From a virus (lineage: Duplodnaviria; Caudoviricetes), in the IMG/VR virus record IMGVR_UViG_3300047669_002431, positions 1 through 59,021 of that record: 59,021 bases of DNA; one strand, given 5' to 3'. The notes under the pieces are model-generated. The model worked only from the letters and a program-made list of their open reading frames with translations. It was not told the origin of the DNA and made no database searches. The translations under genes were made by a program, and so were the position numbers. The first letter of the stretch is position 1; the number at the start of each line of letters is the position of its first letter. Below, in pieces: positions 1 through 46,980 of the stretch.

Positions 1-2
1 CT

Positions 3-3000
3 GGTGGACCTGTTGGCCCTCAAGGAGTCAAAGGGCAAAAAGGAATCAAAGGTCCGGCTGGTGGACCTGTTGGACCTAAAGGGAGCGAAGGCCCTATTGG
101 ACCCACGGGTCTCAAAGGAATTAAAGGACCTGCTGGTGGGCCTGTTGGCCCTCAAGGAGTCAAAGGGCAAAAAGGAATCAAAGGTCCGGCTGGTGGACCT
201 GTTGGACCTAAGGGAGACAAAGGCCCTCAAGGAACCAAAGGACCTGCTGGTGGACCCATTGGTCCACAAGGACCACAAGGACCACAAGGACCACAAGGAC
301 CACAAGGACCACAAGGTCCACAAGGACCACAAGGACCACAAGGACCACAAGGTCCACAAGGACCACAAGGACCACAAGGACCACAAGGTCCACAAGGACC
401 ACAAGGACCACAAGGACCACAAGGACCACAAGGACCACAAGGACCCAAAGGTCCCCAAGGCCCCCAAGGAGTCGAAGGACCCAAAGGTCCCCAAGGAGTC
501 GAAGGACCCAAAGGCCCCCAAGGAGTCGAAGGACCCAAAGGCCCCCAAGGGGTCGAAGGACCCAAAGGTCCCCAAGGAACTAAAGGACCTGCTGGTGGAC
601 CCATTGGCCCCAAGGGAGACAAAGGCCCTCAAGGAACCAAAGGACCTGCTGGTGGACCCGTTGGTCCCAAGGGAGACAAAGGACCTACAGGTTCCGATGG
701 CCCTACTGGACCAACTGATTGTGCCGTAGTTAAAGCTTGTTTAAGCACAGGTAGCGGATTCACTATTGGGGGAGCTACAATGGTAATTCCCATCTATACT
801 TACGGTGGTCTCATTAACACCGGCTCCGGAAGCATTTCCGGAACTGGGACTATCAGTATGACTGGAGGAGCTACTTTTGGCGGCACTACGACGATAAGCA
901 TTCTGACAGGCACTGGTGGGTTTTCATTGAATGGCTCAATCGTTACGGGGTTAATGGGCCTTACGGGGGCAGGAACTTTTGCTTGGGGCGGAGGCTGCAC
1001 GGGCACGTTCACTGTCAACTCTCCAGTTACTACTACATGTGGAATTATAGACTCTCACGCTACTAATGGAGTAACTTCTACCGGAGGATTTGGGGTAGGA
1101 AGCACAGGATACGGCATTAATTCGGCAGGAGGTGGGCTGTTTAACGGACTGCATGTTAAAGGTCTCAAGGGCTGCTCCGATGTCGGCGCACAATTTGATA
1201 TTCCAGTAACCACTCTATGTGACGTTACGGTTGGGGGAGATTTAGCTGTCGAAGGATGCGACTTTACGAGTACTTGCAGCACGTTCAACATTCTAGCTAG
1301 CTCTAGCGAAGTTAATTTTGCTACATCTTCTCTAACCACGAACATCGGAAATGGGGCGGGAGCTACAATTAATCTTAACGCGGCGACTATAGACTCAACC
1401 GAGAGTAGTCTTACGTTGTGGGGTACGCCAACGGAAATATACTTCGGGACAAGTGCGGGAACAATAGGGTACGGGCAGACTGATACAGAGCACACTTTCA
1501 ATGGAAATCTTACAGTAACAGACTCCGGTAATCTAACCGTAGATGGTCTCACTGTTTTAAATCAGACTCTTGAGGTTACTGGCTTATCCTCTCTAGACGG
1601 TGGGATAGATGTAGAAGGAGCAAACTTTACAGTAAGTGTAGCTGGAGCAATTGACACAGTTTCTACTTTAGACGTAACTGGCTTATCCTCTCTAGACGGT
1701 GGGATAGATGTAGAAGGAGCAAACTTTACAGTAAGTGTAGCTGGAGCAATTGACACAGTTTCTACTTTAGACGTAACTGGCGCTACTACCCTGTCCAGTA
1801 CATTAAATGTTACGGGTATTAGTACCTTTACTAGCGCTGCAAATTGCCTCGACACACTTAATAGCGCTTCTACTACCTCGTTAGCAACCGATGGTGCAGC
1901 CACAAGCACTGGGGGGCAGCTTACAATAGGAACTCTTGCTACTGCAACAGGGTGTCCATCTATATTAGTTAATGGAGGTAGTGGGCTAGTAAAAGAAATC
2001 CCTGTCGCTACGCTGCGAGACGATTGCAACCTAAAAGGCGAGAAGGGTCCTGAAGGCCCTCAAGGTCCACAAGGTCCACAAGGACCACAAGGACCCAAAG
2101 GTCCCCAAGGAGTCGAAGGACCCAAAGGCCCCCAAGGACCACAAGGACCCAAAGGCCCCCAAGGGGTCGAAGGACCCAAAGGCCCCCAAGGAGTCGAAGG
2201 ACCCAAGGGTCCCCAAGGAGTCGAAGGACCCAAAGGCCCCCAAGGAGTCGAAGGACCCAAAGGCCCCCAAGGAGTCGAGGGACCTAAAGGTCCTACGGGC
2301 GCTGGAGGCTCCGCAGGAGCTAAGGGACCTACAGGTTCCGATGGCCCTACTGGACCAACTGATTGTGCCGTAGTTAAAGCTTGTTTAAGCACAGGTAGCG
2401 GATTCACTATTGGGGGAGCTACAATGGTAATTCCCATCTATACTTACGGTGGTCTCATTAACACCGGCTCCGGAAGCATTTCCGGAACTGGGACTATCAG
2501 TATGACTGGAGGAGCTACTTTTGGCGGCACTACGACGATAAGCATTCTGACAGGCGCTGGTGGGTTTTCATTGAATGGCTCAATCGTTACGGGGTTAATG
2601 GGCCTTACGGGAGCGGGAACTTTTGCTTGGGGCTCAGGCTGCACAGGTACATTCACTGTCAGTTCTCCAGTTACAATGGAGTGCGATCTTAACGTAAAGG
2701 GCAATACTTTCCTAAAAGGAGACTTAACAATTGATGGCTGCGACATCAAAACGACAGACTGTAGTGAGTTCAACTTATTTAATCACAGCGGGGATAATCT
2801 CGCTTACCTGAATATAGGAGGCTCTACTGTAGATATTAATTACGGAACAAGCGGAACCTCTCATAGATTTAGCGGCGGCCACATGGAGTTAATTGGCAAA
2901 GGGATGGGCTCTAATGTCACTGGGTATAAGATAACTTCGAACGCTACAAACATAGATATATTTAATGATGGCTCGCACGCCAACAGCATCGGTAATTTAT

Positions 3001-4364
3001 TTGGCCTCCAAAGCTCAGGAATTAACCTTGGTAACGTTTTCTCTATTTTTACTAATTCTGGCGACACTCAGCTAGGAAGTGATTGCAGTAATATACATGG
3101 CATAACGGGAATAATAGATCATCATTGCGGCGACGCGAATTTCAACTTAGACCTTGGGAACACGTATATTCATAACAATTTATACGTAGGGGAAGACTTA
3201 ATTGTATCCGGAAGCGCTGTAGTAGATGAGGACCTCACCGTTAAGGGGAATACTATTCTTGGAAATTCCTGCAGCGATACTCTGACCGTAGACGCAACAG
3301 CAACCTTTAGTTGCGATACTACTTTTGGAAACACTTGCGAGGACAGCACTACCGTACAGACCTTTATTTCAACCTGCACGACAGACTTAGCTCAAAATGG
3401 AGACGATACTTCCATTCACGGGGCTCTTAACGTTAAGGGAAACGCTGTCTTACAACAAGACTTAGCGGTCAATGGCTGCGATATAACCACTACTTGCACT
3501 GCGTTCAATTTAATAAACGACACACCTACCACCGTAAATTTTGCGGGAGCAGGAACAACAATTTCAATGGGGGCTGGCGCAGCGGCTACGATAAATCTAA
3601 ATGCTGGCTCAATAGAGTCTAACGCCTCTAGCGTAAATTTGCTCACCACTCCGAGCGCAATTCAATTCGGGACCGCAGCTACCTCCATAGATATTGGAGC
3701 GGTTGGAGTTAGCATGGTAACGGTTCAAGACCGATTAACCGTTGGAGATATACCCAATTATGATAGTTGCACCCTCTTAACTCATGAGGCGGGAGTGGTC
3801 AGCTATGTTGAAGCTAGTTATCTCAGGGATAACTGCGACATGAAAGGGGAAAAGGGGCTCAAAGGAAACCTTGGCCCTCTTGGCCCTCTTGGCCCTCTTG
3901 GCCCTCTTGGTCCATTTGGTCCTAATGGTAGCGATGGCTCCAAAGGTCAAAAGGGAACCGAAGGCGCTGCTGATAAACACGCAATCGTGGAAGGACTTGC
4001 AAAAGAAACTTTTGTAGGATTAACTTGCGTAGAAATGCCAGAAGTTAGATTCGAGGATATAATTTCTATAGAGACTTCCGGCAATCTGAATATGAGCTAT
4101 AAAATTGACGAAGAATTTATCCACGTATGTGAAGAAGGCACTATTGAGGCGATTGGTTACACGACCTCTTCTCCGTGCTTATGCGGAATCGAAGTTGAGA
4201 ACGGAATTATAAACATTAAATTTAGTAATCATATTCCAAGAAAAATAATTTTAAAATTAAGCGGTATACGCAAAGGTAGAAAAAAAACTAGATTTCCCGT
4301 ATTCTCAGAAGAGGAAATGGATCAGAATAGACAATTCTGGGGTAGCTGGAGAAAGGATAAATAA
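3..4364 (+). CDS. Large modular collagen-like (Gly-X-Y) fibre/structural protein, 5'-truncated by the window edge (at least 1453 aa)
   Basis: Frame 3 reads open from position 3 ([16 protein letters not shown]...) into the listed 780..4364 ORF. Three Gly-X-Y segments (about 3-717, 2037-2360, 3846-3965) alternate with Gly/Thr/Ser/Cys-rich beta-type domains. TAATG overlap with the next gene. Confidence 0.85.
261..440 (+). repeat. 9-nt tandem repeat (GGWCCACAA)x20 encoding (GPQ)20
   Basis: Directly visible, in frame with the collagen CDS. Confidence 0.95.
681..1030 (+). repeat. Copy 1 of a ~350-nt near-identical intragenic direct repeat (partner 2325-2674, offset 1644 nt)
   Basis: Both copies encode [20 protein letters not shown]...FTVxSPVT. 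Near-identical to about 967, then mostly synonymous differences. Confidence 0.95.
1578..1781 (+). repeat. 99-nt exact tandem duplication (33-aa unit [33 protein letters not shown])
   Basis: Two identical consecutive units starting at 1578 and 1677. Confidence 0.95.
2325..2674 (+). repeat. Copy 2 of the ~350-nt intragenic direct repeat
   Basis: Matches 681-1030. Confidence 0.95.
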
Positions 4365-11302: not shown

Positions 11303-11337
11303 GGGTATATAATATTTTTTTTATCTCTAAATGTCAA
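11303..11337 (-). promoter_or_regulatory. sigma70-type promoter, leaderless
   Basis: TTGACA-17-TATTAT-6 nt-ATG(11302). Confidence 0.75.
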
Positions 11338-15233: not shown

Positions 15234-15236
15234 TAT

Positions 15237-15812: not shown

Positions 15813-15814
15813 TT

Positions 15815-16567
15815 TTACGCTTTCCATTTTTCAAAACAAAATTCATCGCTACACATGTGATCAAGATTGGGCTTATCGAGACTCGTTCTTTTATCAATAC
15901 AGCGAAAGGTTAGGTAAGCTTTGAAATCTTTTTTATTAGCGTAGTAAATGCTTTGAGTTTTTACTTTTTCAAATTCGTCTTTGCAGTATCTATTTACGCG
16001 GCTCAAAATTAAATGATCGAAAGGTAGGGAGTTATTTTCTATGCAAAATACGGGCTTGGTAAAAGAAATGTCAGGTATACAGTTGTAGCCCATTATAGAA
16101 TTTAGATGCAAAAAGGAGTCGTAAAACGGAACGCATAAGATTAAATCTTTATCACTCCACGCTTCTCTCAAGGTGTCATAATCTGCTCTGGGTTGATAGT
16201 AAAACCCCTCAAGAGCAGCTTTAGAGTAAATTTTAATTAATCGTTGGTAGCCGGATTTATTTTTAGCAAAAACTATGAACTTGCACGTCTCCTTCCTCGC
16301 CGACTCTTCTTTTTTAGTTAAATCATGGCATACGTTAAGCCTTAATCCGAAATTTAATTTAAGTTTATTTTCAGCGGAGTTTACGTGAGCTTGAAGGAAC
16401 CCGCTCATGCTGTCTTCCACCAAGTAGAACTCCTTCAAGTCGTTATCCTTGCAAAGCTTTATTACGGAATCAGGACCTTCATCAATTACGTCTTCGGGCT
16501 TTTCTAAATTTAAGATAGACCTTCCAATGCTGTAATGGGATTTAAAAAATGGTAGAGATTTTTCCAC
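15815..16567 (-). CDS. Stand-alone PHP domain of Pol III alpha
   Basis: KSHYSIGRSI, LVEDSMSG, FGLRL, FAKNKSGYQRLIKIYS, GFYYQPRAD match the DnaE N-terminus. Confidence 0.85.
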   Translation of the reverse strand: MEKSLPFFKSHYSIGRSILNLEKPEDVIDEGPDSVIKLCKDNDLKEFYLVEDSMSGFLQAHVNSAENKLKLNFGLRLNVCHDLTKKEESARKETCKFIVFAKNKSGYQRLIKIYSKAALEGFYYQPRADYDTLREAWSDKDLILCVPFYDSFLHLNSIMGYNCIPDISFTKPVFCIENNSLPFDHLILSRVNRYCKDEFEKVKTQSIYYANKKDFKAYLTFRCIDKRTSLDKPNLDHMCSDEFCFEKWKA

Positions 16568-16604: not shown

Positions 16605-17602
16605 TCCATAAAGTCAAATGCGTCATGACTTCGAGTGTGCGCTGGACACCCTTTGTAGGAGCTCAATTTAACTTTGCCTTTTGATTCGTCGAGAGACTCC
16701 TTGTCAAAGGCATTTTTTATAACGTCTCCATTTGAGTTTATTAGCGAGTAATATTCAAAGTCAAATTTAAACGGACAATGCCACATTAAATCACCATTTT
16801 TCTTTAGCTGCCCCTTGTGTTTGGCGAAGCCGCAATTAAGTGGCCCGCAAAAGCCTTCATCCCTTTTCGGCATCGGATGACTTGAGGCGAAATTGCTTTT
16901 AGCATCTGATTCTGAAAAATTATTAATAATTTTATAAATATGCTCTAAATAATATTCGAAACCGGAGAGCTGCTCTTTTGTGAAGCGTATTTGCTGAGCT
17001 GGACTCTTAGGGAATCGTAAAAATAAAAACTCGACAATGACGCTTTTCAATTTAGGCCATAGCGTTTTAGACGCGAGAGTGTAAGTCATCGCTTGGACAT
17101 TGGATTTAAGCTCTTTTTCGTTAAATTTACTTTTACTAGATTTATAGTCTACAATTTTAAGTTTTCTCGCATATTCTATAGGCTTATCCATGAAGCCTCG
17201 TATTTTATATTCTGGCTTTTTATTTTCAATAAGAAATTCTTTTTCAGGAGAATTCACGACCCCTTTGGAGCCGTAAAAGTCATTGTCTAAGCCTACTAAA
17301 ATCATCTCCTCGCACATTAAATAATTTTCTTCAGAATATCCCTCTTCTTTAATAAGGGATTTTTTTACAAGTCTTTTAATTGCTGGAGATGCGTCGAGAG
17401 TAGCCGCCCCCATTATAAGGCTAAAATGTTTTTTATGACGAGGCTTAACTAAAAGCTCAAAAATTAGGTGGCAAACCGTTCCTCGTCTTGCTCCGTCGTT
17501 ATTGGACTGAGGGAGCTTGAGGTGGTAATTACACCAATATTTCCAAGAGCAAGACTCGAAGGTTTTTATCTTGGAGGCGGATAGTATTTGTTTTTCAGTC
17601 AT
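16601..17602 (-). CDS. RecB/AddB/Cas4-like PD-(D/E)XK exonuclease, possible Fe-S cluster
   Basis: LSASKIKTFESC, GTVCH, RGFMD, IVDYKS, QAMTY motifs; C-terminal cysteines. Confidence 0.85.
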   Translation of the reverse strand: MTEKQILSASKIKTFESCSWKYWCNYHLKLPQSNNDGARRGTVCHLIFELLVKPRHKKHFSLIMGAATLDASPAIKRLVKKSLIKEEGYSEENYLMCEEMILVGLDNDFYGSKGVVNSPEKEFLIENKKPEYKIRGFMDKPIEYARKLKIVDYKSSKSKFNEKELKSNVQAMTYTLASKTLWPKLKSVIVEFLFLRFPKSPAQQIRFTKEQLSGFEYYLEHIYKIINNFSESDAKSNFASSHPMPKRDEGFCGPLNCGFAKHKGQLKKNGDLMWHCPFKFDFEYYSLINSNGDVIKNAFDKESLDESKGKVKLSSYKGCPAHTRSHDAFDFMD

Positions 17603-18213
17603 TATTTAAAGGGCATTCCGGATACCCATAAAACTAAAGAATTTCTTAAGCCTTTAGTCACGGGGTGGACTTTATGAAGGCAAAAAGAAGGGAATAGCAA
17701 CACCGTTCCTTTCTTTTTTTCAGCCACATAAGAGCTAGAGCTAGTTTTAAGCTCTAATTCGCCTCCTTCATAATCTTCTGGATCACTTAGTTGAATTACG
17801 ACGCTAATCTTGCGCTGCACTCCGTAAGAGCCATCTATGTCTAAGTGGTAGTCGTAGAAGTCTCCATTCTCTCCTTTAGGAGCGCATGTGTAAGTAGTAT
17901 ATTGAGCGTCTTCCCAAAATCCTATTAAGTCAAACTTCCAGAGCTCACGATTTGCTTTATGAGCTAGGCTCAATAACGCCTTGTAAACCCATTCGTTTTT
18001 TTGAGCGGAGCGCGGCAGCCATGATACTGATCCTTGGCGGCTTTTATCGCTTTCTCCTTGTCCGAAGGTTTTTGCTTTTTCGTTAGTTAGGGAGTTTCCT
18101 GTGCTTTTTATTTTTTCTATTTCTTTGTCGGTAAAAACGTCGCTTCCACCATAATACGTGCAAAATGATCTTTGAGCTCCTAATTCAGTTGAGTTTATAA
18201 AGCAGGTTTCCAT
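17602..18213 (-). CDS. 2OG-Fe(II) oxygenase (PKHD/prolyl-hydroxylase-like)
   Basis: YDYHLD, RKIS, YEGGEL, FPSFCLHKVHPVTKGLRNSLVLW. Confidence 0.9.
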   Translation of the reverse strand: METCFINSTELGAQRSFCTYYGGSDVFTDKEIEKIKSTGNSLTNEKAKTFGQGESDKSRQGSVSWLPRSAQKNEWVYKALLSLAHKANRELWKFDLIGFWEDAQYTTYTCAPKGENGDFYDYHLDIDGSYGVQRKISVVIQLSDPEDYEGGELELKTSSSSYVAEKKKGTVLLFPSFCLHKVHPVTKGLRNSLVLWVSGMPFK

Positions 18214-19107: not shown

Positions 19108-20667
19108 CTAGAGAAGCTCGTTATTATTGTCGTTAGGATGCATGTCGTCAAGCATGAGTCCATTTTCAGCATGGGCCGTAATGTCTCGAAGAGTCCCTTT
19201 TTCTCTAATCTCAAAGTTATTAAAATGAAGGTTAAAAAAGTTGCGGTCAAGACGGTAGGTTCCGTTGGGCATTAATCGAGAAACTAAGTCTAGTCCTCCG
19301 GGAGCGTTTTCTCCTTGGCTGCGCCCCTTGAAGACGATCATCTTATGAGTTCCGAAACGCAAGTCATTAAATCCCATTCGGTTTATATTTTGAAAAACTT
19401 CTTCAGCTTCTTCATTGGTGATTCCCTCGTCTAATACGATTTCATCGGGGGTTTTGAGTCTTATTTCAGCCACGAATTCGGCGTACCGTTGGATGCGATC
19501 AGAGTCCGCGATAATAGTGCTGTCGTCCGTAACTCCATCCGCTGATCTATTGAAGGAATCGCCCTTGCGGTTCGCTTGAACAGCCGTCAACAAAATGGCG
19601 TTTATCTTACCGGAAATTTTATGTAGATTATCTATTAATTCTCCTAGAGCTTGGTGCTCGCTCCAGTTATTTTTAAGCATTTTAGAGTTACACTTCAAGT
19701 AGTCAAAAACTAAAACGCATGGATTTCCTTCCCCCACTTCATTGTAATACCATTCAAAAATGATTTGTCTCATTTCCTCAATTCCCTCTTCTGGAATATG
19801 CTTTATGTATAAAGGCATATCTTCATCTAGCTTTTCTACTTCTTCTTCGAATTTTACTGCGAGCTCAGGGTTGAACTTTACCTTTCCGGTTCTGATTGCG
19901 TAATTAGGAATTTTAGTTCTCATCGCAAAGAAGCGGTCTCTAACAAAGTCTTCGGGCATTTCCGTATCTAGGATTAGGGTGGGAAGGTTGTGATCTTTGC
20001 ATAAGTGATTGGAAAAGTAATGCAGAATGGTGCTTTTACCGATGCCTCCTCGACCAACGAATACATAAGTCATTTTAGGCTCGAACCCTCCGTAAGTAGA
20101 ATTAAACGTAGGGAAGGGGCTGGAGTACCCCATCATATCTATGGGATTATCTCTTCGATCAATTAAAACTTGCTTGTATCCTGAGAATATTTTTTTAGGT
20201 TGAGTCTCTTCATCGCTTGGTAGAATTATCTCATTGCTAATTTGTTGTAGCTCTTGAATGGTTTGAGTTTTATCGTCATTAGAAGACGAGGAGTAAATTT
20301 TAGTTTTTAAGCGATCAATTTTACTTTCAGCTTTGCGTAAAACATGATTAAAAGACAAATCTCTTACGAGCTCCTTTGCTCCGTCTGCGGAGATTTTGAA
20401 TAAATCAATATTATTGATATAGTCTTTAATGTCTACGCCATCTTTATCGAAGGCTCCAGCTTCAATGCATTTTTCGCCTATCACCACGGGATCGGTGGAG
20501 CCTCCGTGTAAAACTTGTAGCCTGAAAACGTCAAATATTTGTTTGTGAGTGGGGTGATGAAAGCTTTCTCGATTAATCCATGATTGGTTTTCTATATATA
20601 CTTGAGGGTGCTTAAGTAAAGAGTAAAGAGTTTCTCTTTCTAATTCGTTGCGGTATAATTTGCTCAT
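19108..20667 (-). CDS. dnaB: DnaB-type replicative helicase
   Basis: Walker A GRGGIGKS, LDTEM, VFDYL, AVQANR; DnaB N-terminal domain. Confidence 0.9.
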   Translation of the reverse strand: MSKLYRNELERETLYSLLKHPQVYIENQSWINRESFHHPTHKQIFDVFRLQVLHGGSTDPVVIGEKCIEAGAFDKDGVDIKDYINNIDLFKISADGAKELVRDLSFNHVLRKAESKIDRLKTKIYSSSSNDDKTQTIQELQQISNEIILPSDEETQPKKIFSGYKQVLIDRRDNPIDMMGYSSPFPTFNSTYGGFEPKMTYVFVGRGGIGKSTILHYFSNHLCKDHNLPTLILDTEMPEDFVRDRFFAMRTKIPNYAIRTGKVKFNPELAVKFEEEVEKLDEDMPLYIKHIPEEGIEEMRQIIFEWYYNEVGEGNPCVLVFDYLKCNSKMLKNNWSEHQALGELIDNLHKISGKINAILLTAVQANRKGDSFNRSADGVTDDSTIIADSDRIQRYAEFVAEIRLKTPDEIVLDEGITNEEAEEVFQNINRMGFNDLRFGTHKMIVFKGRSQGENAPGGLDLVSRLMPNGTYRLDRNFFNLHFNNFEIREKGTLRDITAHAENGLMLDDMHPNDNNNELL

Positions 20668-20668
20668 A

Positions 20669-21964
20669 TTACGGTAAAGATAAAAACGAAACTAAAACGT
20701 ATCGGACTCCACTGCTTATAGGTTTAGCTCCATGTCGATGTGAAACCATACCGGGGTGGAGGGACATTTCTCCAGTTTTTCCTATGATAGTTTTTTGCTG
20801 ACGAAAAAAGAAAGTTCCACCGCCTTCGAAGTCTTCATTCAGCGTAAGAACAGAGCTTAACACACTTTGGTCGTGGTGTAAAGACAAAAAACCCTGTTTG
20901 TCCATCGAATATTTAATTATAAAATTTTCTGAATTTAATTCAAGCCATCTTTTTCCGTCTAACTTATAGTAGTGCGATCCGAGTGGGAAAACGTACTCAG
21001 TTAAAACTCTCTTATAAATTTCATCGAAGCCTAGAGTGGAAAGAAGCATGTCGTGAGTAGGGTAATATTCATGCCTCTTTTCGGTCCATTCGCCGCATTT
21101 TTCAGCTTCTTGAATTAAGTCGTCGCAGAAATCCTTATTAAAGATGGGAAAATGAGCGACATCAGCTACAGGCTCTTCAACTAGCAGGTCGTAGTCTTGG
21201 GCGAGCATGGCGGGGTTAAGATATCGACTCTTCCATTGGTCCCAATCTCTAGTTTGTTTTATAAGAGAGGGGGGAGCTACTACCTTCTCAAGGTTTTCAG
21301 TACTGCTAACTGATGAAGCGCTAGATTGAATTATGTAGTCTTCCTTAAAGGCTACGGCCCTAACATCTTTCCAAATAAAATTTAAATCGTTACGGGGGTG
21401 AGTGCAAAATGTAGCTGATAAAAACTCATCGACAGGCATTATCTTATTTTCAAACCCGTAATCTAGTAGATTTTTAATACCTGTTTTTGATAAGAAATAC
21501 GAATGAGTGCAATAGGTGTAGTCTGGTATAGAAATATTCTCCGAAACCTCCTCTAAGTCGGGCTTTACTTTGTTTCTGCCAGCATAACAAAGATGCCAAT
21601 CTGATTGGTCTGCTTCAATTAGGAGATCAGAGGTAATGGGCTTTAAGGGGTCAAAGTCTTCTTCTAAAATTAATATTTTTTCATATCCTTGGCGAGCTGC
21701 GTGCTTCCAAACGGATAGATGGGAAAGGGCGCAGCCGATTTCTCCGGCTTTAATGTCTCGATTCCACCAGTGATTGTCAGACCCCTCTAGTTTCCAAGGA
21801 AAAGTGCTCCACTCAAAGTCAACCCGAGGGTCAAAACCGTTAACGGCTTTAAATAGAACTAATTGAAGAGATTTAATACCTATTTTTTTTACTCTTTCTA
21901 TAATTTCTTCCCTTTTATTAGAGAGAGTCTGCTCTAGCGCGATAACGTAAATGCAATCAATCAT
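20669..21964 (-). CDS. Fusion of a GT25 (COLGALT-like) glycosyltransferase and a PLOD-type lysyl-hydroxylase 2OG-Fe(II) domain
   Basis: N-terminal GEIGCALSH, ILEEDF, MPVDEFL..F..HP; C-terminal FPIFNKDFCDDLI, PTHD, NFIIKY, LHHDQS, FEGGG, LHPGMVSHRHG, GVRYVLVSF. Confidence 0.85.
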   Translation of the reverse strand: MIDCIYVIALEQTLSNKREEIIERVKKIGIKSLQLVLFKAVNGFDPRVDFEWSTFPWKLEGSDNHWWNRDIKAGEIGCALSHLSVWKHAARQGYEKILILEEDFDPLKPITSDLLIEADQSDWHLCYAGRNKVKPDLEEVSENISIPDYTYCTHSYFLSKTGIKNLLDYGFENKIMPVDEFLSATFCTHPRNDLNFIWKDVRAVAFKEDYIIQSSASSVSSTENLEKVVAPPSLIKQTRDWDQWKSRYLNPAMLAQDYDLLVEEPVADVAHFPIFNKDFCDDLIQEAEKCGEWTEKRHEYYPTHDMLLSTLGFDEIYKRVLTEYVFPLGSHYYKLDGKRWLELNSENFIIKYSMDKQGFLSLHHDQSVLSSVLTLNEDFEGGGTFFFRQQKTIIGKTGEMSLHPGMVSHRHGAKPISSGVRYVLVSFLSLP

Positions 21965-22377
21965 AAAGTTATATTAAATTTTTTTTTAAAAAAATCTTTG
22001 GAAATTTTACAGACTTCGTCTTGCTCTATTTCGATCAACATGAAATCATTTTTTTCGAGCCATTCGCTTTTTTGAATATCTCTTTTTATAGACTTTAAGT
22101 AATTAGTTCTAGAGTTAGAGTGAAAAAATTTATTGAAAGAGGAGTGCTGTCTCCCGTTTACTTCTATAGCTATTTTTTTAGTTGCGTTAAGTATATCCAC
22201 TTTTAATCTAGTCCCGTACACCGGAAACTCTTCGTAAACCCTTTGAGCTTTCCAGAAGGGCTTTAAGAATTGCTTTACAGCGTATTGTATTTTAGATCGC
22301 GAGCTACCATCCCATTTTATAAGATAAGGGCTTATATTTTTTTTCTGTAATTTGCCGTATACGTTATAGAGCCTCAT
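21961..22377 (-). CDS. DUF559/Vsr-like endonuclease
   Basis: EEFPV, LKVD, IAIEVNGRQH, RDIQKSEW motifs. Confidence 0.7.
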   Translation of the reverse strand: MRLYNVYGKLQKKNISPYLIKWDGSSRSKIQYAVKQFLKPFWKAQRVYEEFPVYGTRLKVDILNATKKIAIEVNGRQHSSFNKFFHSNSRTNYLKSIKRDIQKSEWLEKNDFMLIEIEQDEVCKISKDFFKKKFNITL

Positions 22378-23462
22378 GACTTTTTAAGAACCTCCCGAAA
22401 CTTATGAAATATATACTTTCCTATTTTGTCATTTTCTTCAAAGTACTTCCTTAAGTTATCGAATCCTTGATGTTGATTTTTCATCTCTTCTCCAGTTTCT
22501 CTTTTTACTTCTTCAATCAGATCATCGGAAATAGATACCCAAGCGCCACTTTTTTTAGCCATATCCCATTGGAGCATCATGTCTGCGACTTCAGCTTCAA
22601 CCCATATACTTTTCCCCTCTTTTCTTCCGTACCTTATAGGGTACTTAACTAGTAAGCCTGTTTTTTCGTTAGGAGTTTTCTTGAAAACTACCTTACACCA
22701 ATGCCCTACGGGGGTTTTCCCATCCTTATCGAAGATGATGTCGGCTTTATATCTTTCTTGAAATTCTAAAATCCAATCACTGTAATGAAGCAGCGCGTTT
22801 CCGCCTGACGCGTTTGTAACGCGGGCCTCGGTTTTTGCGTAAGGGTTAATGGAAACTTTTGCCCGTACCTGAGAAACTAAATAACATACATGGCCCTTGG
22901 AGGTCATGGACAAGGCCATTTTCCTCAAAAAATCTGAACTTAAGAGCGCACCTCCAGCTACTCTGTTAGCTTCCTCTGGAGATTTTTCTAAATCAGCCTT
23001 CGGAACTAAAGAGTCCATCGAGTCTATGATGAACATGTACCTTCTTTTGGAATCATTATTATGAACGAGCTCTCTTAGTAAATTTATTACCGACTCATAA
23101 ACATTACTTTTGTACACGAACCACTTATCTTTATCCATGCTAAGTCCTGCCCGAAGGATCATGTCGTCAGTGAGGCGACCCTCAGATTTTACGTACACGA
23201 CCATGCTGTTTTTTTCTTTTTGAAAATTTTTGCCAAAAGCTAAGGCACATGACGTTTTGCCTCCTTCTGTAATTCCTGATGCCCTTATAATTCCGGGGCC
23301 TATCCCGCCTCCCATTTCGATGTCGAGCAACAAGCTTCCGCTTGATATTGTGTAATGGCGTTCTTCTTCAAAATTGTAATGATCACCTTTGTTGTCCTGA
23401 AGATAGGCATTTATTTGATCAACAGGGGAAACGTCTTCTATGTTATTTTTCTTTTTTTTCAT
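22374..23462 (-). CDS. recA: RecA/UvsX-like recombinase
   Basis: SSGSLLLD, Walker A GITEGGKT, IIDS, SQVR, SGGNALLHYS. Confidence 0.88.
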   Translation of the reverse strand: MKKKKNNIEDVSPVDQINAYLQDNKGDHYNFEEERHYTISSGSLLLDIEMGGGIGPGIIRASGITEGGKTSCALAFGKNFQKEKNSMVVYVKSEGRLTDDMILRAGLSMDKDKWFVYKSNVYESVINLLRELVHNNDSKRRYMFIIDSMDSLVPKADLEKSPEEANRVAGGALLSSDFLRKMALSMTSKGHVCYLVSQVRAKVSINPYAKTEARVTNASGGNALLHYSDWILEFQERYKADIIFDKDGKTPVGHWCKVVFKKTPNEKTGLLVKYPIRYGRKEGKSIWVEAEVADMMLQWDMAKKSGAWVSISDDLIEEVKRETGEEMKNQHQGFDNLRKYFEENDKIGKYIFHKFREVLKKS

Positions 23463-23889
23463 CTTTAAAAAAGTTATTTAGTTTACTGGTATTGGGGGCT
23501 TTGTAGTTGGAAATTTTCGTGCCATTAGGGATATCGTAAGTATATTCTTGATCGGGGCAAAAATCAATTTTCTTAAGTACGATAAATTTATAATACCCAT
23601 TTTTAATATCTCTTTTAGCAGAGGACTTGCGAAAATAAGCTAAACTGGGGATGGGAAACGGCAGTGTAAACTGAAGCCAAAAATCGAACTTGAAGTCTTT
23701 ATAGTCTTCTGTTAAGATTTTTTTAGCAATCCCTTTCTCCCTAATCCACTCCTTTTGAGTTAAGTCCTTGGCTTTAGGTAGGAAATTCCATACGAGGAAC
23801 TCGCCTTGGTTGCGAATATTTGGTTGGCCGCCTTTATTGTTGTATATTAACTTGTTTAAGGTAAACTTAGGCTTCTTTTTGGGCTTCAT
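23443..23889 (-). CDS. Hypothetical basic protein
   Basis: 148-aa ORF overlapping both neighbours in an operon-like arrangement. Confidence 0.6.
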   Translation of the reverse strand: MKPKKKPKFTLNKLIYNNKGGQPNIRNQGEFLVWNFLPKAKDLTQKEWIREKGIAKKILTEDYKDFKFDFWLQFTLPFPIPSLAYFRKSSAKRDIKNGYYKFIVLKKIDFCPDQEYTYDIPNGTKISNYKAPNTSKLNNFFKDEKKEK

Positions 23890-24949
23890 TGAGGTCCCAT
23901 GTTACCATACTTTCTACTAGTTTGTCAAAGGAAATCTTCGGCTTCCAGCCAAGCTCTTCTCTGATTTTGCTAGAGTCGCCCAGTAAGAGGTTTACGTCGG
24001 CTGGTCGGTAAAATTTAGGGTTAATTTTAACTAATGTTATTTTTTTGTGTTTACGGTGAAGGGTGTATTTTTCCTCTTTTCCACTCCCTTCCCACTCACC
24101 TTTTAAGCCTACGACTCCGAAAGCTCGCTCGACAAACTCTCTTATCGAGTGACTTTCTCCGCTAGCGAGTAAATACTCTTTCGGTTTATCTTGGTTTAAC
24201 ATTAACCAAATTCCATCCATAAAGTCTCGGCTGTCGCTCCAATCCCTTTTAGAGTCTAAGTATCCGAGCTCAATGGGGGCGACTAAGGTCGAGCTCTCTT
24301 CGGGGAACTGCGGTGACTCTGCTTTTTCTAATTCACTATAAATTCGAGCCACTCCTTTCGATATTTTACGAGTCACGAACTCCTCTCCTCTTTTAGTTCC
24401 TTCGTGATTAAAAAGAAGCCCGTGGATAGCGAAAAGATTATATGACTCTCGGTAAACTTTAACTATATGACGAGCCGCGCATTTAGAAGCCCCGTAAGGA
24501 CTCCTAGGCTTCAGCGGGTGATCAAGCGTTTGTGGGGAAAAGTCTACGTCACCGAACTCTTCGCTACTGCCCGCGCTGTAGAACCTACAGTCAGGTTTAA
24601 ATTTTCTAATTGACTCTAAGCACCTTATTACGCCTACCGCGTTTACGTCAAACACTTGCATCGGCATATCCCATGAACACCCGACAAAGCTATTCGCTGC
24701 GAAATTTATAAAATAATCTGGCTGTATTCTTTTTACTATTTCATTTATGCTTACTTCATCAGTGAGGTCGCCGTTTACTATAGAGAAGCGGGGGTGACTT
24801 TTAATATTTTTAATATTTTTAAAATTTGGGACGGAAGAGCGGCGCATCATCCCGTACACATGAAGCTCTTCGGGCTTCGCTAGTAAGACTTCGGCCATAT
24901 TAGCTCCGTCTTGCCCAAGGACGCCTGTAATTAAAATTTTCTTTTTCAT
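23867..24949 (-). CDS. gmd: GDP-mannose 4,6-dehydratase
   Basis: ITGVLGQDG, SSEEFG, PRSPYGASK, LFNHEG, FVTRKI, KRDW, YRPADV. Confidence 0.95.
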   Translation of the reverse strand: MKKKILITGVLGQDGANMAEVLLAKPEELHVYGMMRRSSVPNFKNIKNIKSHPRFSIVNGDLTDEVSINEIVKRIQPDYFINFAANSFVGCSWDMPMQVFDVNAVGVIRCLESIRKFKPDCRFYSAGSSEEFGDVDFSPQTLDHPLKPRSPYGASKCAARHIVKVYRESYNLFAIHGLLFNHEGTKRGEEFVTRKISKGVARIYSELEKAESPQFPEESSTLVAPIELGYLDSKRDWSDSRDFMDGIWLMLNQDKPKEYLLASGESHSIREFVERAFGVVGLKGEWEGSGKEEKYTLHRKHKKITLVKINPKFYRPADVNLLLGDSSKIREELGWKPKISFDKLVESMVTWDLNEAQKEA

Positions 24950-25851
24950 TTCTTAGAGTCGATGTAGCTCATTATGTCACCGGAAGGGCTCCATTCTAAT
25001 TTTTTTCTTATTTTAGTAATGTTGGCAAGGGTGTGTAGAGCCTCGCCTTCTCGTTGTTCTACAAATTTATAAGGACCTCCAACGCGTTCAGCTAAGTCTA
25101 AAACGGAGTAGCTTTTTCCGCTTCCAACGTTAAATACTTGGCCGAAGGAGTCTTCTTTACGGTGTTTTACGGCTAGTACATTAGCTCTTACAACGTCCTT
25201 GACGTGAGTAAAGTCTCTTGTCTGGGAGCCGTCTCCAACTATAGTCATTTGTTTTCCGGCCTTAAATTGCTTTAAGAAAAGACCAACAACAGGAGCGTAT
25301 ACGCCTTTTGTGGGCTCTCGTGGGCCGTACACATTAAAATATCGAAAAATTATAGTAGGAAGATTATGGAGTTCAAAATACATTTTGCATAACTGTTCAG
25401 CTCCATATTTGGTAGTAGAATAGATATTTAGACAATCAGCATTCATTTCTTCATTCAACGGGGTTTGGTTTTTGAGACCGTATACAGAAGAGGTGGAAGA
25501 TAAGACGAACCTTTTAACCTCATGCTCAACGCATAACTGGAGCAATGAGGCGGTAGCCGTAAAGTTAATGTCGCACGTAGATAAGGGGTTATCCATAGCC
25601 ACTTGAATCCGGGAGAAGGCGGCTAAATGAAAAACGTAATCGGGTTTAATTTTTTTAAAAACTTTTTCAACTCCCACCCTGTGCGAAATACTTAATTTAT
25701 AATACGATGCAGAGTTGTTGAAGTAAAATTCGTCATTAGATGCGGCGGATAGGTCATCTATAACATGAACATCATTACCCAGCTCAATAAGGTGGTCTAC
25801 TAAATTACTGCCTATAAACCCGCACCCTCCAGTTACTAAACATTTACTCAT
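24946..25851 (-). CDS. NAD-dependent nucleotide-sugar epimerase/dehydratase (UDP-Glc/GlcNAc 4-epimerase-like)
   Basis: TGGCGFIGS, HLAA, SSTSSVYG, YSTTK, RYFNVYGP, GDGSQTRDF. Confidence 0.9.
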   Translation of the reverse strand: MSKCLVTGGCGFIGSNLVDHLIELGNDVHVIDDLSAASNDEFYFNNSASYYKLSISHRVGVEKVFKKIKPDYVFHLAAFSRIQVAMDNPLSTCDINFTATASLLQLCVEHEVKRFVLSSTSSVYGLKNQTPLNEEMNADCLNIYSTTKYGAEQLCKMYFELHNLPTIIFRYFNVYGPREPTKGVYAPVVGLFLKQFKAGKQMTIVGDGSQTRDFTHVKDVVRANVLAVKHRKEDSFGQVFNVGSGKSYSVLDLAERVGGPYKFVEQREGEALHTLANITKIRKKLEWSPSGDIMSYIDSKK

Positions 25852-25852
25852 T

Positions 25853-26614
25853 TTAGCTTAATATATTTTTACATTTTTCTATAAATAAGTCAATAGAAGA
25901 AGAGCTTCTAGCTTGAAAGTTATGGTATACTAAATCTTCGTAAGTGCTTCCGATTCCAAATTCAACGCCCTCCTTTAAGTGCCATTTAGGTTCAATGCAA
26001 TGAGAAAATTTGATATATTTAACATCAAAGCCCTTTTCTCTCGCTATATAAGAAAGCTCTTCGCCGCAATCACTTCTGTAAGTCTCTAAATAAGATGGCT
26101 CCCCTAGATTCTTATAATTTTTTTTAGATATCACAAAGAAGGCTGGACCAGCGTAGGTCTCTTCGTGACCTGTTAAATTCTCTTCGTTACCTTTAGGGCT
26201 AATATGTCCGGAGATTTGGTCGCCGTTACGCGTTGCGTGCGTTAAGGCGATCAACTTGTCTGTTTCATGTAGGTGATTATTACTCGTTTGCTCAATGCCA
26301 ATTATAGCGTTTTTGCCATGCACTCTACTTATTAAAGTCTCTAGAATGTTGGGAGCTAAGGGTATGGCGTCCACGTCCACGAAGCAAAGATAGTCTACTT
26401 CTTCTGTTCGGGAGAGCTGGTTTAAGGTCTCTCCGTGGCGCTGATTAGCATGAATGTAGTTTACTGAGGTTCTAAAATGTTCAAAAACTTTTTTATGATA
26501 TTCCATGTATAGAGGATCGCAAAAAAAAGCAGGGCAATAGACCCCTACCTTCAGGCTCTCTCCGTCTACTTTTACATCGTTGTACGAGAAGCTCATCGTA
26601 TGATATTGGGGCAC
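25853..26614 (-). CDS. GT-A-like glycosyltransferase (putative)
   Basis: FVDVDAIP DxD motif; located in the sugar cluster. Confidence 0.55.
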   Translation of the reverse strand: MPQYHTMSFSYNDVKVDGESLKVGVYCPAFFCDPLYMEYHKKVFEHFRTSVNYIHANQRHGETLNQLSRTEEVDYLCFVDVDAIPLAPNILETLISRVHGKNAIIGIEQTSNNHLHETDKLIALTHATRNGDQISGHISPKGNEENLTGHEETYAGPAFFVISKKNYKNLGEPSYLETYRSDCGEELSYIAREKGFDVKYIKFSHCIEPKWHLKEGVEFGIGSTYEDLVYHNFQARSSSSIDLFIEKCKNILS

Positions 26615-43993: not shown

Positions 43994-45097
43994 ATGGATA
44001 AATTTTTATATAATAAAAAAATATTGCTCTACACAGGGTATCAAAACAAGGCTTGGTGTCCCAAGAGTTTTGAGAGCGAAGCTATAGGGGGAACTGAAAC
44101 GGCCATTTACAACCTTTCTAAATGCTTTAATGATCTAGGCTATGATGTAGTAGTAGGAGGAGACGTAGTTGAAGGGGACTACGAGGGAGTAAAATACAGA
44201 AGCCTTAATTCCCTTAGTAAAAATTTTCGCAAGGAGCACTTCAAGGCTATAATTGCTACTAGCTATGTCCATTATGTAAAAGAATTCTTTGATTTTAGTT
44301 TTGATAAATCTTTTTTTTGCGTTCACAATACTGAGTCTACCGGAGGGTGGTGGTATCCCCACTGGAAAGGGGGCAACCTAGGAAATGAGTGCTTGAATTT
44401 ATTAGAATCTAATAAAGTAACTAACGTCGTATGCTTAACGAATTGGCATAGAGATTTTTTTAAAGCCTCTTTCCCTTCCTTAGCTAATAAAGTCAGAGTT
44501 ATAGGGAACGGCTTCACCCCCAGCTTAGTCCCCTCCTCTTTAAATAAAGTTCCTCGCAGCTTTATTTACTCTTCCCATCCAGAAAGGGGATTAAAGCTAC
44601 TTTTATCTAATTGGCTCTTAATTAGAGATAAGAAAGAGGACGCTACTTTAAAAGTCTGCACGCCAGAATACGGCCTTCAATATTTTAAAGACTTAATAGA
44701 GCCCTTCCTTTACTTAAAAGATCATGGAGTGTCCTTTGTGGGAGCCGTAGATCAAAAAAGTTTATATAAAATTATATCTGAAAGCGAGTACTGGCTTTAC
44801 CCCACTCGTTACGAGGAGACTTATTGCATCACCGCTCTAGAGATGCAAGCCATGAAGACTTGCGTGCTTACATCTAATTACGGAGCGCTTAAAGACACTG
44901 TGGCTAATCGAGGTATTCTAGTGGAGCCAGAGGAGAATGATAATATTTTCTTTCTTCAATTTTTTAATAATTTTTTATATTTAGATCAGCAGAGTTACGA
45001 TAAGAAAAAAATAGTTGACCGAGCTTATGAGTGGAGCAAGTCTCAATCATGGAGTCATAGAGCTAAAGAGTGGGTTAAATTAATAGAGTTTAATTAA
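43994..45097 (+). CDS. GT4 glycosyltransferase
   Basis: IGGTETA, YSSHPERGL, YPTRYEETYCITALEMQA. Confidence 0.85.
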   Translation: MDKFLYNKKILLYTGYQNKAWCPKSFESEAIGGTETAIYNLSKCFNDLGYDVVVGGDVVEGDYEGVKYRSLNSLSKNFRKEHFKAIIATSYVHYVKEFFDFSFDKSFFCVHNTESTGGWWYPHWKGGNLGNECLNLLESNKVTNVVCLTNWHRDFFKASFPSLANKVRVIGNGFTPSLVPSSLNKVPRSFIYSSHPERGLKLLLSNWLLIRDKKEDATLKVCTPEYGLQYFKDLIEPFLYLKDHGVSFVGAVDQKSLYKIISESEYWLYPTRYEETYCITALEMQAMKTCVLTSNYGALKDTVANRGILVEPEENDNIFFLQFFNNFLYLDQQSYDKKKIVDRAYEWSKSQSWSHRAKEWVKLIEFN

Positions 45098-46885: not shown

Positions 46886-46980
46886 TACTTTTAAATACAC
46901 TCAAGATGTCTCTATAACTTTTTTAAGTTTTAAAGTGTATACATATTAGACTCTTTTCAGTAAAAAGGGACTGTAAAAAT

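Follow-up and report, generated by a model that had tools for sequence, protein, structure and literature searches.

Does a bacteriophage carry in a single polypeptide the two steps by which animal collagen lysines are hydroxylated and then glycosylated, and does it use them on a collagen-like fibre of its own? Hydroxylysine-linked glycosylation is commonly regarded as characteristic of animal collagen, and the available text of a review (PMC9614988) gives mimivirus L230 as the only case outside animals. The question is raised by an open reading frame of 431 codons in a 59,021-nucleotide stretch of viral DNA (hereafter the window), which the sequence-only reading had described as a fusion of a COLGALT-like GT25 glycosyltransferase and a PLOD/LH-like lysyl hydroxylase (LH). 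The gene and its parts are as follows:

20669..21964, (-) strand: complete coding sequence of the GT25-LH fusion, 431 codons and a stop, ATG start
21320..21964, (-) strand: GT25 glycosyltransferase domain, residues 1-215, GT-A fold (from sequence, Pfam GT25 and Foldseek)
21263..21319, (-) strand: Ser-rich linker, residues 216-234, low model confidence (from the predicted structure and the loci alignment)
20672..21262, (-) strand: lysyl-hydroxylase-type 2OG/Fe(II) oxygenase domain, residues 235-431 (from sequence, fold and PMC5802723)

All motifs on which the fusion had been proposed were found in the translation, with GEIGCALSH, WHLCYAGR, YTYCTHSYFLSKTGIKNLL and MPVDEFLSATFCTHP in the N-terminal half and FPIFNKDFCDDLIQEAEKCGEW, PTHD, NFIIKY, HHDQS, EGGG, LHPGMVSHRHG and GVRYVLVSF in the C-terminal half. 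An HNH-like ORF lies upstream, its stop codon overlapping the ATG (ATGA), and DnaB begins 1 nt past the stop of the fusion gene. By gene order in the window the fusion gene is flanked by RecA/HNH and DnaB, within the replication module, about 16 kb from the collagen gene of the window and on the opposite strand. The structure predicted for the protein has a mean pLDDT of 89.2, and the junction between the two domains spans about 20 residues. A search of NCBIfam with the 431-aa protein returned no matching family, and the protein has no match to PF25342 (PLOD-type GT), the central GT_PLOD and accessory region being absent. The residues for iron, 2OG and metal binding and for base catalysis are all in place, and are kept in 79 to 80 of 80 related viral loci. 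Judged by sequence and predicted fold, the ORF is a real fusion of a GT25 glycosyltransferase and an LH-type 2OG/Fe(II) oxygenase.

The source contig is estimated to be 37% complete, no tRNA gene was found in the window, and a comparison of its DNA polymerase III alpha with cultured phages gave no close match (identity at most 32%). In RNA libraries, most of the fusion gene is not covered by any contig, which we treat as neutral evidence.

To place the GT25 half, we searched the sequences of solved structures and found that residues 28-248 match human COLGALT1 with an E-value of 1.9e-17. With the N-terminal half alone as a query, COLGALT1 was retrieved at 1.2e-17 versus 0.57 for a solved bacterial GT25 (8xlz), and the closest solved relative of this half is the COLGALT1 catalytic domain. 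A Foldseek comparison ranked the candidates in the same order as the sequence search, with COLGALT1 at 1.3e-16 (rmsd 3.5 A, 26% identity) and bacterial GT25 at 3e-8 only. The sequence-only reading had named clustering with LPS GT25 and generic oxygenases as an outcome that would speak against it, and this is not where either half falls.

The residues of the GT25 domain that correspond to functional positions of COLGALT1 are G43, C78, E102/D103 (metal and UDP), Y151, D179 (base) and E180. In COLGALT1, D437 binds Mn, D522 is the catalytic base and E523 anchors the hydroxylysine amino group, while G377 and C412 contact the uracil, according to PMC12987934. In our alignment D437 corresponds to D103 (kept in 79/80 viral loci), D522 to D179 (80/80) and E523 to E180 (80/80), the last two lying within "MPVDEFL", which aligns to "MLPVDEFL" of COLGALT1. 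The remainder of the UDP/Mn2+ site is represented by E102 in place of D436 (a conservative change), by G43 for G377 and by C78 for C412, C78 being kept in 79 of the 80 loci. The acceptor cleft is different. COLGALT1 Trp495 belongs to the acceptor site and the W495A mutant is inactive (PMC12987934); it aligns to C152 of the phage protein, in a column that contains N 65 times, T 6, C 4, Q 4, one gap and no W across the 80 viral loci. The equivalent of the neighbouring Y494, Y151, is retained (Y in 57 and F in 22 of the 80), and K470 aligns to N131 and is not conserved in the viral loci. The COLGALT1-like "YW" plus K470 feature is thus absent from the phage enzyme; the SYW motif is kept in 10 of the 11 L230-size proteins that we examined. 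The N-terminal non-catalytic GT lobe is also absent, the GT25 domain beginning at residue 1. In COLGALT1, S569 and T571 of a lid loop contact the pyrophosphate, and the Ser-rich linker may correspond to this loop, with S220 (S/T in 71/80 viral loci) and T222 (T in 48/80, N in 23/80) as candidate contacts. Q213, immediately before the linker, is kept in 79/80.

For the LH half, the search of solved-structure sequences showed that residues 243-428 match human LH3/PLOD3 at 2.9e-24 and mimivirus L230 at 1.6e-22. When the C-terminal half was searched by itself against 177,635 such sequences, only LH3/PLOD3 (5.4e-25) and L230 (3.4e-23) matched, the next hit having an E-value of 0.43. Foldseek placed the domain, a double-stranded beta-helix, on the L230 LH domain (6ax6) with a TM-score of 0.85, an rmsd of 2.1 A, 32% identity and an E-value of 2e-16, the next oxygenases (Tpa1, vCPH, P3H1) following at about 1e-6; the top viral match was a Megavirus procollagen-lysine dioxygenase (2e-26). 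In the L230 LH domain, Fe(II) is held by H825, D827 and H877, and the C5-carboxylate of 2OG by Tyr814 and Arg887, according to PMC5802723. These align to H363, D365 and H411, each kept in 80/80 viral loci, and to Y352 and R421, kept in 80/80 and 79/80, the sole miss of R421 being a truncation at a contig end. In the LH-specific tail-to-tail dimer of L230, a Leu873 knob inserts into an aromatic pocket made of Y798, Y801 and Y831 (PMC5802723); L873 aligns to V407, a position that is Ile in 72/80 viral loci, and Y831 to L369, Ile in 66/80, the alignment near Y798/Y801 being uncertain.

The window also encodes a proposed substrate and several candidate partners:

3..4364, (+) strand: collagen-like fibre gene, proposed substrate, 5'-truncated by the contig start, three Gly-X-Y regions
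17602..18213, (-) strand: small 203-aa 2OG-FeII_Oxy_3 oxygenase, homologous to one encoded next to the enzyme in relatives' collagen cassettes
24946..25851, (-) strand: SDR epimerase/dehydratase, best named match GalE, below cut-off
43994..45097, (+) strand: stand-alone GT4 glycosyltransferase, 367 aa, homologue of the fused N-terminal GT4 domain of relatives

The fibre ORF had been described as a Lys-rich collagen with roughly 35 G-X-K-G sites and essentially no Pro at Y, and a systematic count agreed closely. We found 126 Gly-X-Y triplets in runs of at least 4, in which X is Pro in 88 and Y is Gln in 42, Lys in 37, Glu in 13 and Pro in none; Lys never occurs at X, Arg is missing from the Gly-X-Y regions, and 38 G-x-K-G sites account for 38 of the 62 lysines. 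We looked for a continuation of the truncated gene at the 3' end of the contig and found none. The small oxygenase is 39-43% identical to the cassette oxygenases of relatives, and the literature on PiuC-type hydroxylases yielded no function for it. Apart from the fusion protein, the 2OG oxygenases of the window resemble PiuC-type and OGFOD1-type hydroxylases. The stand-alone GT4, located 22 kb from the fusion gene, is 37% identical (E-value 4.5e-47) to the GT4 domain of larger GT4-GT25-LH enzymes and, by this similarity, may be a candidate for adding a second sugar. A 628-aa GT1-like protein (8859-10745) was rejected as the homologue of the fused GT4 (best E-value 0.03). The epimerase reached 176 bits against the NCBIfam GalE model, versus a cut-off of 262 bits, and its supplying the UDP-sugar is a possible role that we only infer. 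A second, generic GT25 in the window matches COLGALT1 at 0.06-0.09 only, and at least 8 other genes of the window are glycosyltransferase-like.

To assess whether the fusion travels with collagen genes, we gathered relatives from viral contigs using an alignment of 28 sequences as a query, which identified them in 434 viral stretches; a scan of the viral contigs with the single 431-aa protein found no relative. The linkage was counted over the 42 viral loci with at least 6 kb of upstream DNA. A collagen ORF was present upstream on the same strand in 36 of them, ending 1.2-3.4 kb before the GT25 start, and this linkage was found in 11 of 15 clusters defined at 60% identity. Across the viral loci, there were 59 collagen ORFs in 483 kb of upstream DNA versus 0 in 567 kb downstream. 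Six of the 42 loci, and 4 of the 15 clusters, had no upstream collagen gene; Pfam Collagen was detected in one of five whole contigs of such loci, all five being fragments. In bacterial genomes, which we searched with an alignment of 7 sequences, LH-encoding loci were next to a collagen ORF in 4 of 5 cases, GT25-only loci in none of 74. Homologues that occur independently of collagen genes, another outcome that the sequence-only reading had named as speaking against it, are not what the viral and bacterial loci show. In 11,081 triplets of the partner collagens, Lys occupies Y 2,678 times and X 4 times, and Arg occupies Y 33 times. The collagen-like fibres linked to the family carry nearly all their lysines where a lysyl hydroxylase acts. 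This pattern is indirect evidence, drawn from sequence, that fits action of the LH domain on the Lys of X-Lys-Gly. Thr (23%) and Ser (13%) at Y are as common as Lys in these collagens and dominate in some clusters, and some partner collagens are Lys-poor at Y (0-7%).

The relatives differ in architecture. Fusions of GT25 and LH exist in either order, and in bacteria the two also occur as separate neighbouring ORFs; many relatives are three-domain GT4-GT25-LH enzymes, a GT4+LH architecture without GT25 was also found, and L230-size relatives contain PF25342. In a tree of LH domains, which is unrooted and was built from a quick search, the window protein nests in a supported set of 30, of which 22 belong to GT4-GT25-LH proteins, and lies outside a pure split of 43 proteins of 793-1541 aa (SH-aLRT 98). 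GT25 and LH do stand in one chain as the sequence-only reading had it, but its term "one-enzyme" is too strong, because GT4 is present as a third domain in many relatives and as a separate homologue in the window.

These data support the earlier interpretation of the protein as a collagen lysine hydroxylation-glycosylation enzyme, and it probably decorates the phage's own Lys-rich collagen-like fibre. We hold with moderate confidence, on the strength of sequence and modelled structure, that it would be bifunctional, hydroxylating Lys and then glycosylating through GT25 the collagen-like fibre of the phage; this reading rests on homology, fold, intact catalytic residues and the linkage to collagen genes in viruses and bacteria. 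The enzyme would work like mimivirus L230, or like an animal LH followed by COLGALT. With Fe(II), 2-oxoglutarate and O2, the C-terminal domain would hydroxylate Y-position Lys (X-Lys-Gly) of the fibre before the triple helix forms, and the N-terminal GT25, an inverting GT-A enzyme with D179 as the base, would move a hexose from a UDP-sugar onto the new hydroxyl. The separate GT4 homologue, fused in many relatives, might then add a second sugar, and the phage could gain helix stability, protease protection or receptor binding. For the phage of the window we infer what the substrate is, that GT25 acts on hydroxylysine, which sugar it transfers and what advantage results.

The readings that compete with this one differ in the target that they assign to each domain. 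LH might hydroxylate fibre Lys while GT25 glycosylates other sites of the fibre, such as Thr or Ser at Y, the kind of site used in BclA-type collagens, or lengthens a glycan that another glycosyltransferase of the phage has started. The loss of the COLGALT1 acceptor Trp and of a conserved K470 across the 80 viral loci points this way, as do the Thr and Ser content of the partner collagens, the further glycosyltransferase-like genes of the window and the existence of GT4+LH proteins without GT25. However, fusion of GT25 and LH in both orders and their adjacency in bacteria suggest that the two domains act in sequence on a shared substrate, the residue matching the hydroxylysine anchor (E180) is kept in every one of the 80 loci, and L230 shows that the same domain pairing glycosylates hydroxylysine (PMC9614988); we regard a different GT25 target as unlikely. 

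Less probable still is that the enzyme acts on a non-collagen protein of host or phage, for instance a translation or replication factor, its co-occurrence with collagen being incidental. In the lineage of the window the gene sits inside a replication operon and is translationally coupled to its neighbours, 4 of the 15 clusters have no adjacent collagen gene, other phage 2OG oxygenases may modify such proteins, and the further 2OG oxygenases of the window resemble PiuC-type and OGFOD1-type hydroxylases. Against this, the wider family and the bacterial loci are strongly linked to collagen, the genome of the window itself encodes a fibre with 38 G-x-K-G sites, and the window protein nests among LH domains that mostly come from GT4-GT25-LH proteins, the architecture of the collagen cassettes. 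The position among replication and nucleotide-metabolism genes is also all that favours modification of DNA or nucleotides, in which a base would be hydroxylated and then glycosylated as in TET/JBP-plus-glycosyltransferase systems. We found no similarity of the oxygenase to TET, JBP or AlkB in solved-structure sequences at E-values up to 1, the domain is LH-type down to its iron and 2OG ligands, and its relatives lie in fibre modules, which leaves this reading scarcely credible.

Among known systems, mimivirus L230 is one of the closest. It has a GLT25D1-like glycosyltransferase at its N-terminus and a lysyl hydroxylase at its C-terminus, hydroxylates Lys and then adds a hexose, namely glucose, on virus-encoded collagen-like proteins, so that the fusion logic itself is not new (PMC9614988). 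Like the phage protein, L230 (895 aa; LH domain PDB 6ax6/9nev) has GT25-like and LH domains in one polypeptide and comes from a genome with collagen-like proteins, its Fe and 2OG ligands occupy the same positions, and the LH folds superpose at 2.1 A. The phage protein is under half its size, has no central GT_PLOD and accessory region, no SYW acceptor motif and an LH domain outside the supported group of L230-size proteins, and its host is a bacterium. By sequence the phage form is a compact version of an L230-like GT25-to-LH enzyme.

Among solved structures, human LH3/PLOD3 and COLGALT1/GLT25D1 (PDB 6fxk, 9evj, 8zgc) match the two phage halves best, and D522, E523, D437, G377 and C412 of COLGALT1 all have phage equivalents. 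Animals make LH3/PLOD3 and COLGALT1 as separate ER proteins, each with several domains. COLGALT1, a hydroxylysine galactosyltransferase specific for UDP-galactose, has in addition a non-catalytic N-terminal GT domain and, in the acceptor cleft, W495 and K470 (PMC12987934), none of which is present in the phage family. The bacterial LOS/LPS GT25s (Haemophilus, Aggregatibacter, Helicobacter; 8xlz, a beta-1,4-galactosyltransferase) share Pfam GT25 (PF01755) and the GT-A fold, but are only 25-27% identical over the phage GT25 half; none of the 74 bacterial GT25-only loci has an LH partner or a collagen neighbour, and the LPS/LOS gene context is not shared by the phage gene, which lies among replication and fibre genes. 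The closest relatives by the LH tree are the metagenomic GT4-GT25-LH phage enzymes (745-860 aa), with the same GT25-LH core at 42-46% identity to the window protein; their GT4 is fused, unlike that of the window, and their gene follows that of the collagen fibre after a single small gene. Iyer et al. 2010 predicted bacterial collagen hydroxylation/sulfation operons (PMC2938197) and share with our reading the view that 2OG dioxygenases of prokaryotes act on collagen-like or tail-collar proteins encoded alongside them. A literature search for a phage LH/GT25 enzyme found neither a description of one nor biochemical or proteomic data on one; the supplementary BLAST taxon lists of the COLGALT1 papers could mention phage hits.

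The same enzyme logic appears here in compact form in an abundant marine phage. If the activity is as proposed, phage fibres would be chemically finished proteins, with a bearing on host recognition and on how virion proteomes are read, the origin of collagen-modifying enzymes would become testable with prokaryotic and phage sequences, and biotechnology would gain a small enzyme, apparently suited to the bacterial cytoplasm, for modified recombinant collagen. A broader proposal, which we advance tentatively and consider doubtful, is that phages and a few marine bacteria run an autonomous cytoplasmic collagen maturation (Lys hydroxylation, GT25 glycosylation, GT4 extension and perhaps more hydroxylation by small 2OG oxygenases), that the prokaryotic and phage LH/GT25 enzymes are the older pool behind animal PLOD/COLGALT and L230 rather than recent acquisitions from either animals or giant viruses, and that the 431-aa enzyme is a minimal, bacteria-native tool.

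Modification of the fibre is directly testable, because the cultured phages S-CAM9, S-PRM1 and CRP-6 carry related enzymes beside collagen-like fibres. Their GT25+GT_PLOD+LH proteins (gp218 in S-CAM9, gp58 in roseophage CRP-6) are annotated "hypothetical protein" and have LH domains about 30% identical to that of the window. They measure 589-614 aa, with a PLOD-type GT between GT25 and LH that the window form lacks, and are encoded directly after collagen-like tail-fibre genes, whereas the enzyme gene of the window is not beside its collagen gene; the adjoining tail-fibre collagens are Lys- and Thr-rich at Y.

A phage fusion of a GT25 glycosyltransferase with a lysyl-hydroxylase-type 2OG/Fe(II) oxygenase (LH), first described in a sequence-only reading, was confirmed by its ORF, its motifs and its matches to LH3/L230 and COLGALT1; every motif quoted in that reading occurs in the translation. 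The enzyme gene and its proposed substrate are:
20669..21964, minus strand, GT25-LH fusion gene, 431 residues
3..4364, plus strand, collagen-like fibre gene, cut by the contig start, about 16 kb from the fusion gene

Pfam assigned the N-terminal half to GT25 (PF01755, E-value 1.3e-14, residues 5-103) and residues 258-334 to the OGFOD2-like N-terminal part of the oxygenase domain, and an NCBIfam search with the fusion protein matched no family. Against 177,635 distinct solved-structure sequences, the protein gave 13 matches at E-values up to 1, including human LH3/PLOD3 (residues 243-428, 2.9e-24), the LH domain of mimivirus L230 (residues 243-428, 1.6e-22) and the catalytic domain of human COLGALT1 (residues 28-248, 1.9e-17). 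Queried by itself against the same set, the C-terminal half matched nothing below 0.43 beyond LH3/PLOD3 and L230, and the N-terminal half retrieved mimivirus R655 (0.041) and a solved bacterial GT25 (0.57). The second, generic GT25 gene of the window (28214-28894) is a useful internal contrast to the COLGALT1-like half of the fusion, as it reached COLGALT1 only at 0.06-0.09.

We modelled the fusion with AlphaFold2 from a 28-sequence alignment (mean pLDDT 89.2), yielding two confident domains linked by a Ser-rich disordered stretch (residues 216-231). Foldseek searches against the PDB bore out the likeness to COLGALT and PLOD drawn earlier from motifs, with full-length LH3 ranked top (3e-23) and COLGALT1 (1.3e-16, rmsd 3.5 Å, 26% identity) and the L230 LH domain (TM 0.85, rmsd 2.1 Å, 32% identity) among the next matches; bacterial GT25 enzymes and other 2OG oxygenases scored 1e-8 to 1e-6. 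Among viral models, the top match was a Megavirus “procollagen-lysine 5-dioxygenase” (2e-26), and rank 17 was a UniProt entry from “uncultured Caudovirales phage” bearing the same automatic name.

Catalytic residues were mapped by sequence alignment, using residue roles from excerpts of PMC5802723 (L230 LH; numbering is chain number + 660) and PMC12987934 (COLGALT1; UniProt number is chain number + 27, an offset fixed by pairing the YW and DE motifs). A profile search of viral contigs hit 520 stretches, of which 434 encode relatives; the best 80 loci were kept. In the LH domain, H825, D827 and H877 of L230 align with H363, D365 and H411 of the fusion, and Y814 and R887 with Y352 and R421; H363, D365, H411 and Y352 are each present in 80 of these best 80 of 434 and R421 in 79. 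The L230 dimer knob L873 and pocket residue Y831 align with V407 and L369. In the GT25 domain, COLGALT1 G377, C412, D436 and Y494 align with G43, C78, E102 and Y151, the Mn ligand D437 with D103, the catalytic base D522 with D179, and E523, given in the PMC12987934 excerpt as the anchor of the hydroxylysine amino group, with E180. Among the same best 80 of 434 relatives, D103 is conserved in 79 and D179 and E180 in all 80. Two acceptor-cleft residues of COLGALT1, W495 and K470, are absent from the fusion (C152 and N131), and Trp occupies the W495 position in 0 of these 80 loci (N 65, T 6, C 4, Q 4, one gap). In contrast to the phage family, proteins of L230 size retained the SYW motif in 10 of the 11 inspected.

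A word-indexed search returned 75 relatives, the majority of them full-length fusions with either 428-460 aa or about 745 aa, and an exhaustive search returned 3289 proteins at E-values up to 1e-3 (136 at 1e-30 or better). We classified 224 of the 3289 using domain profiles built for this analysis, and examples were verified by Pfam. This census comprised 90 GT25+LH, 35 GT4+GT25+LH, 33 GT25+GT_PLOD+LH, 40 LH alone, 10 GT25 alone, 8 in reverse order (LH+GT25), 4 GT_PLOD+LH, 2 GT_PLOD+GT25+LH and 2 GT4+LH. We built a quick maximum-likelihood tree from 147 LH domains, made non-redundant at 70%. The domain of the window fell inside a supported set of 30 rows (SH-aLRT 96), in which three-domain GT4-GT25-LH proteins account for 22, and a separate pure split (SH-aLRT 98) held 43 proteins of 793-1541 aa; with no root and no organism names on its rows, the tree is silent on the direction of transfer.

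We then assessed linkage to collagen in the best 80 of the 434 viral loci. A collagen-like ORF (at least 12 triplets) was found in 52. The co-occurrence that the sequence-only reading proposed as a check held in 36 of 42 loci with 6 kb or more of DNA upstream: these 36 carry, on the same strand, a collagen ORF with 20 or more triplets that ends 1.2-3.4 kb (median 1.7 kb) upstream of the GT25 start. Loci with less than 6 kb had a collagen ORF in 15/38 cases. As an internal control, 482,960 bases of upstream DNA contained 59 collagen ORFs, and 567,193 bases of downstream DNA contained none. The usual cassette order is collagen fibre, small 2OG oxygenase (DUF6445 or 2OG-FeII_Oxy_3), GT4-GT25-LH and a second small oxygenase, the enzyme occurring alternatively as a split-off GT4 plus GT25-LH. 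Pooled over 52 non-redundant partner collagens, 11,081 triplets contain 2678 Lys at Y versus 4 at X, and 33 Arg at Y versus 105 at X. When the loci are clustered at 60% identity, the upstream pattern holds for 11 of 15 clusters, with the window's own lineage among the four exceptions. Against the linkage, some clusters show just 0-7% Lys at Y, and Pfam Collagen was found in only one of five whole contigs, all fragments, from loci without an adjacent collagen gene.

As an independent control, we searched the genomes of 185,579 species of bacteria and archaea, identified 286 stretches as relatives and kept 79 loci. Nearly all match the GT25 half only, the GT25s of Haemophilus, Aggregatibacter and Helicobacter being 25-27% identical to the fusion, and just 5 have an LH-like domain. 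A collagen-like ORF adjoins 4 of these 5 and 0 of the 74 loci without LH. In the four loci where the LH match falls inside the GT25 match region, LH precedes GT25, and the two are separate ORFs in both loci inspected. The LH gene lies beside a collagen-like gene in a few marine MAGs (Arenicellales, other Gamma- and Alphaproteobacteria), the MAG loci being:
L102, 8407-12117; L143, 8058-11355; L101, 91-3318: order collagen, LH, GT25, opposite to the phage domain order
L093, 1720-5582: collagen and LH paired, GT25 on the opposite strand about 8 kb away
L083, 2682-4590: LH and GT25 present, collagen gene absent from the DNA stretch examined

Three cultured phages encode GT25+GT_PLOD+LH proteins annotated “hypothetical protein”, which differ from the GT25-LH of the window by the intervening GT_PLOD:
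L164, Synechococcus phage S-CAM9, 1-6525, enzyme of 613 aa
L162, cyanophage S-PRM1, 1-6525, enzyme of 614 aa
L163, Roseobacter phage CRP-6, 1071-6564, enzyme of 589 aa
In each phage the enzyme gene follows on from collagen-like tail-fibre genes, which have 22-26 Lys and 22-47 Thr at Y; in S-CAM9, two small 2OG oxygenase genes sit between. These phages are ready systems for virion glycoproteomics.

The interpretation as a collagen lysine hydroxylation-glycosylation enzyme is supported at the level that computation allows. The LH domain would hydroxylate Y-position Lys of the fibre and the GT25 domain would then glycosylate the resulting hydroxylysine, a full chain that we consider somewhat favoured. 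Its main uncertainty is the GT25 acceptor, because the COLGALT1 Trp is missing in the phage family. The enzyme logic is already known from L230 and from LH3 plus COLGALT, of which the phage form is a variant: according to the review PMC9614988, L230 has a GLT25D1-like N-terminal and a PLOD-like C-terminal domain, and hydroxylates Lys of viral collagen-like proteins before adding glucose. Since L230 has the same pairing, the fusion represents a minimal version of this design. Our literature searches found no paper describing a GT25-LH enzyme in phages; the nearest printed idea, from an excerpt of Iyer et al. 2010 (PMC2938197), concerns bacterial operons in which hydroxylases and sulfotransferases accompany collagen-like proteins.

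The window is a fragment (estimated completeness 37%) from a marine phage for which no close cultured relative was found; 15 of the 20 runs listed contain at least half of the sampled window words, all of them bearing a seawater or marine metagenome label, and 5 were flagged as possible sources. Its collagen gene lies at the extreme contig edge, as does that of L081 (5-169), the contig of L003, which belongs to a 74%-identical relative. Assemblies seem to break in collagen repeats, which would leave collagen genes under-counted on fragments. Neighbouring genes lie tight against the fusion gene: upstream it shares an ATGA overlap with an HNH-like ORF that comes after RecA, and downstream a 1-nt gap separates it from DnaB. 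The remaining cassette parts exist in the window, yet scattered:
17602-18213, small 2OG oxygenase, 39-43% identity to cassette oxygenases
43994-45097, stand-alone GT4, 37% identity to the fused GT4 domain (E-value 4.5e-47)

Metatranscriptome contigs from four seawater runs (151-255 nt, no mismatches; 20502-20756, 20523-20673, 22222-22405 and 22660-22844) fall on the fusion/DnaB junction and the HNH/RecA genes, a weak hint, with DNA carry-over in libraries possible, that the operon is transcribed in nature.

The window is unusually rich in sugar genes (6153-6914, 8859-10745, 13891-14595, 28214-29706, 47453-48439, 55219-55950 and 23867-27264), which suggests a glycan-building programme larger than the fusion enzyme alone. 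They include two GT2 genes (one immediately follows the fibre genes in the same orientation), a 628-aa GT1-like protein, the second GT25, an RXYLT1-like protein, a GT61 and a DUF5672 protein, alongside a GDP-mannose-dehydratase-like gene, an epimerase and an FkbM methyltransferase; the epimerase near the fusion gene is GalE-like but below the NCBIfam family cut-off. A third 2OG oxygenase (31601-32335, 244 aa) resembles OGFOD1 (1e-5) and Pseudomonas prolyl-hydroxylase-type enzymes (4e-4). The window also encodes a homologue of signal peptidase S26 (46361-46900) and a SET-domain protein (49156-49746). DNA polymerase III alpha is split across 11327-16567 into a PHP-domain ORF (15815-16567) and a polymerase core (11327-13891), between which lie an ORF of no assigned function, an RNase T-type exonuclease and a GT2 gene.
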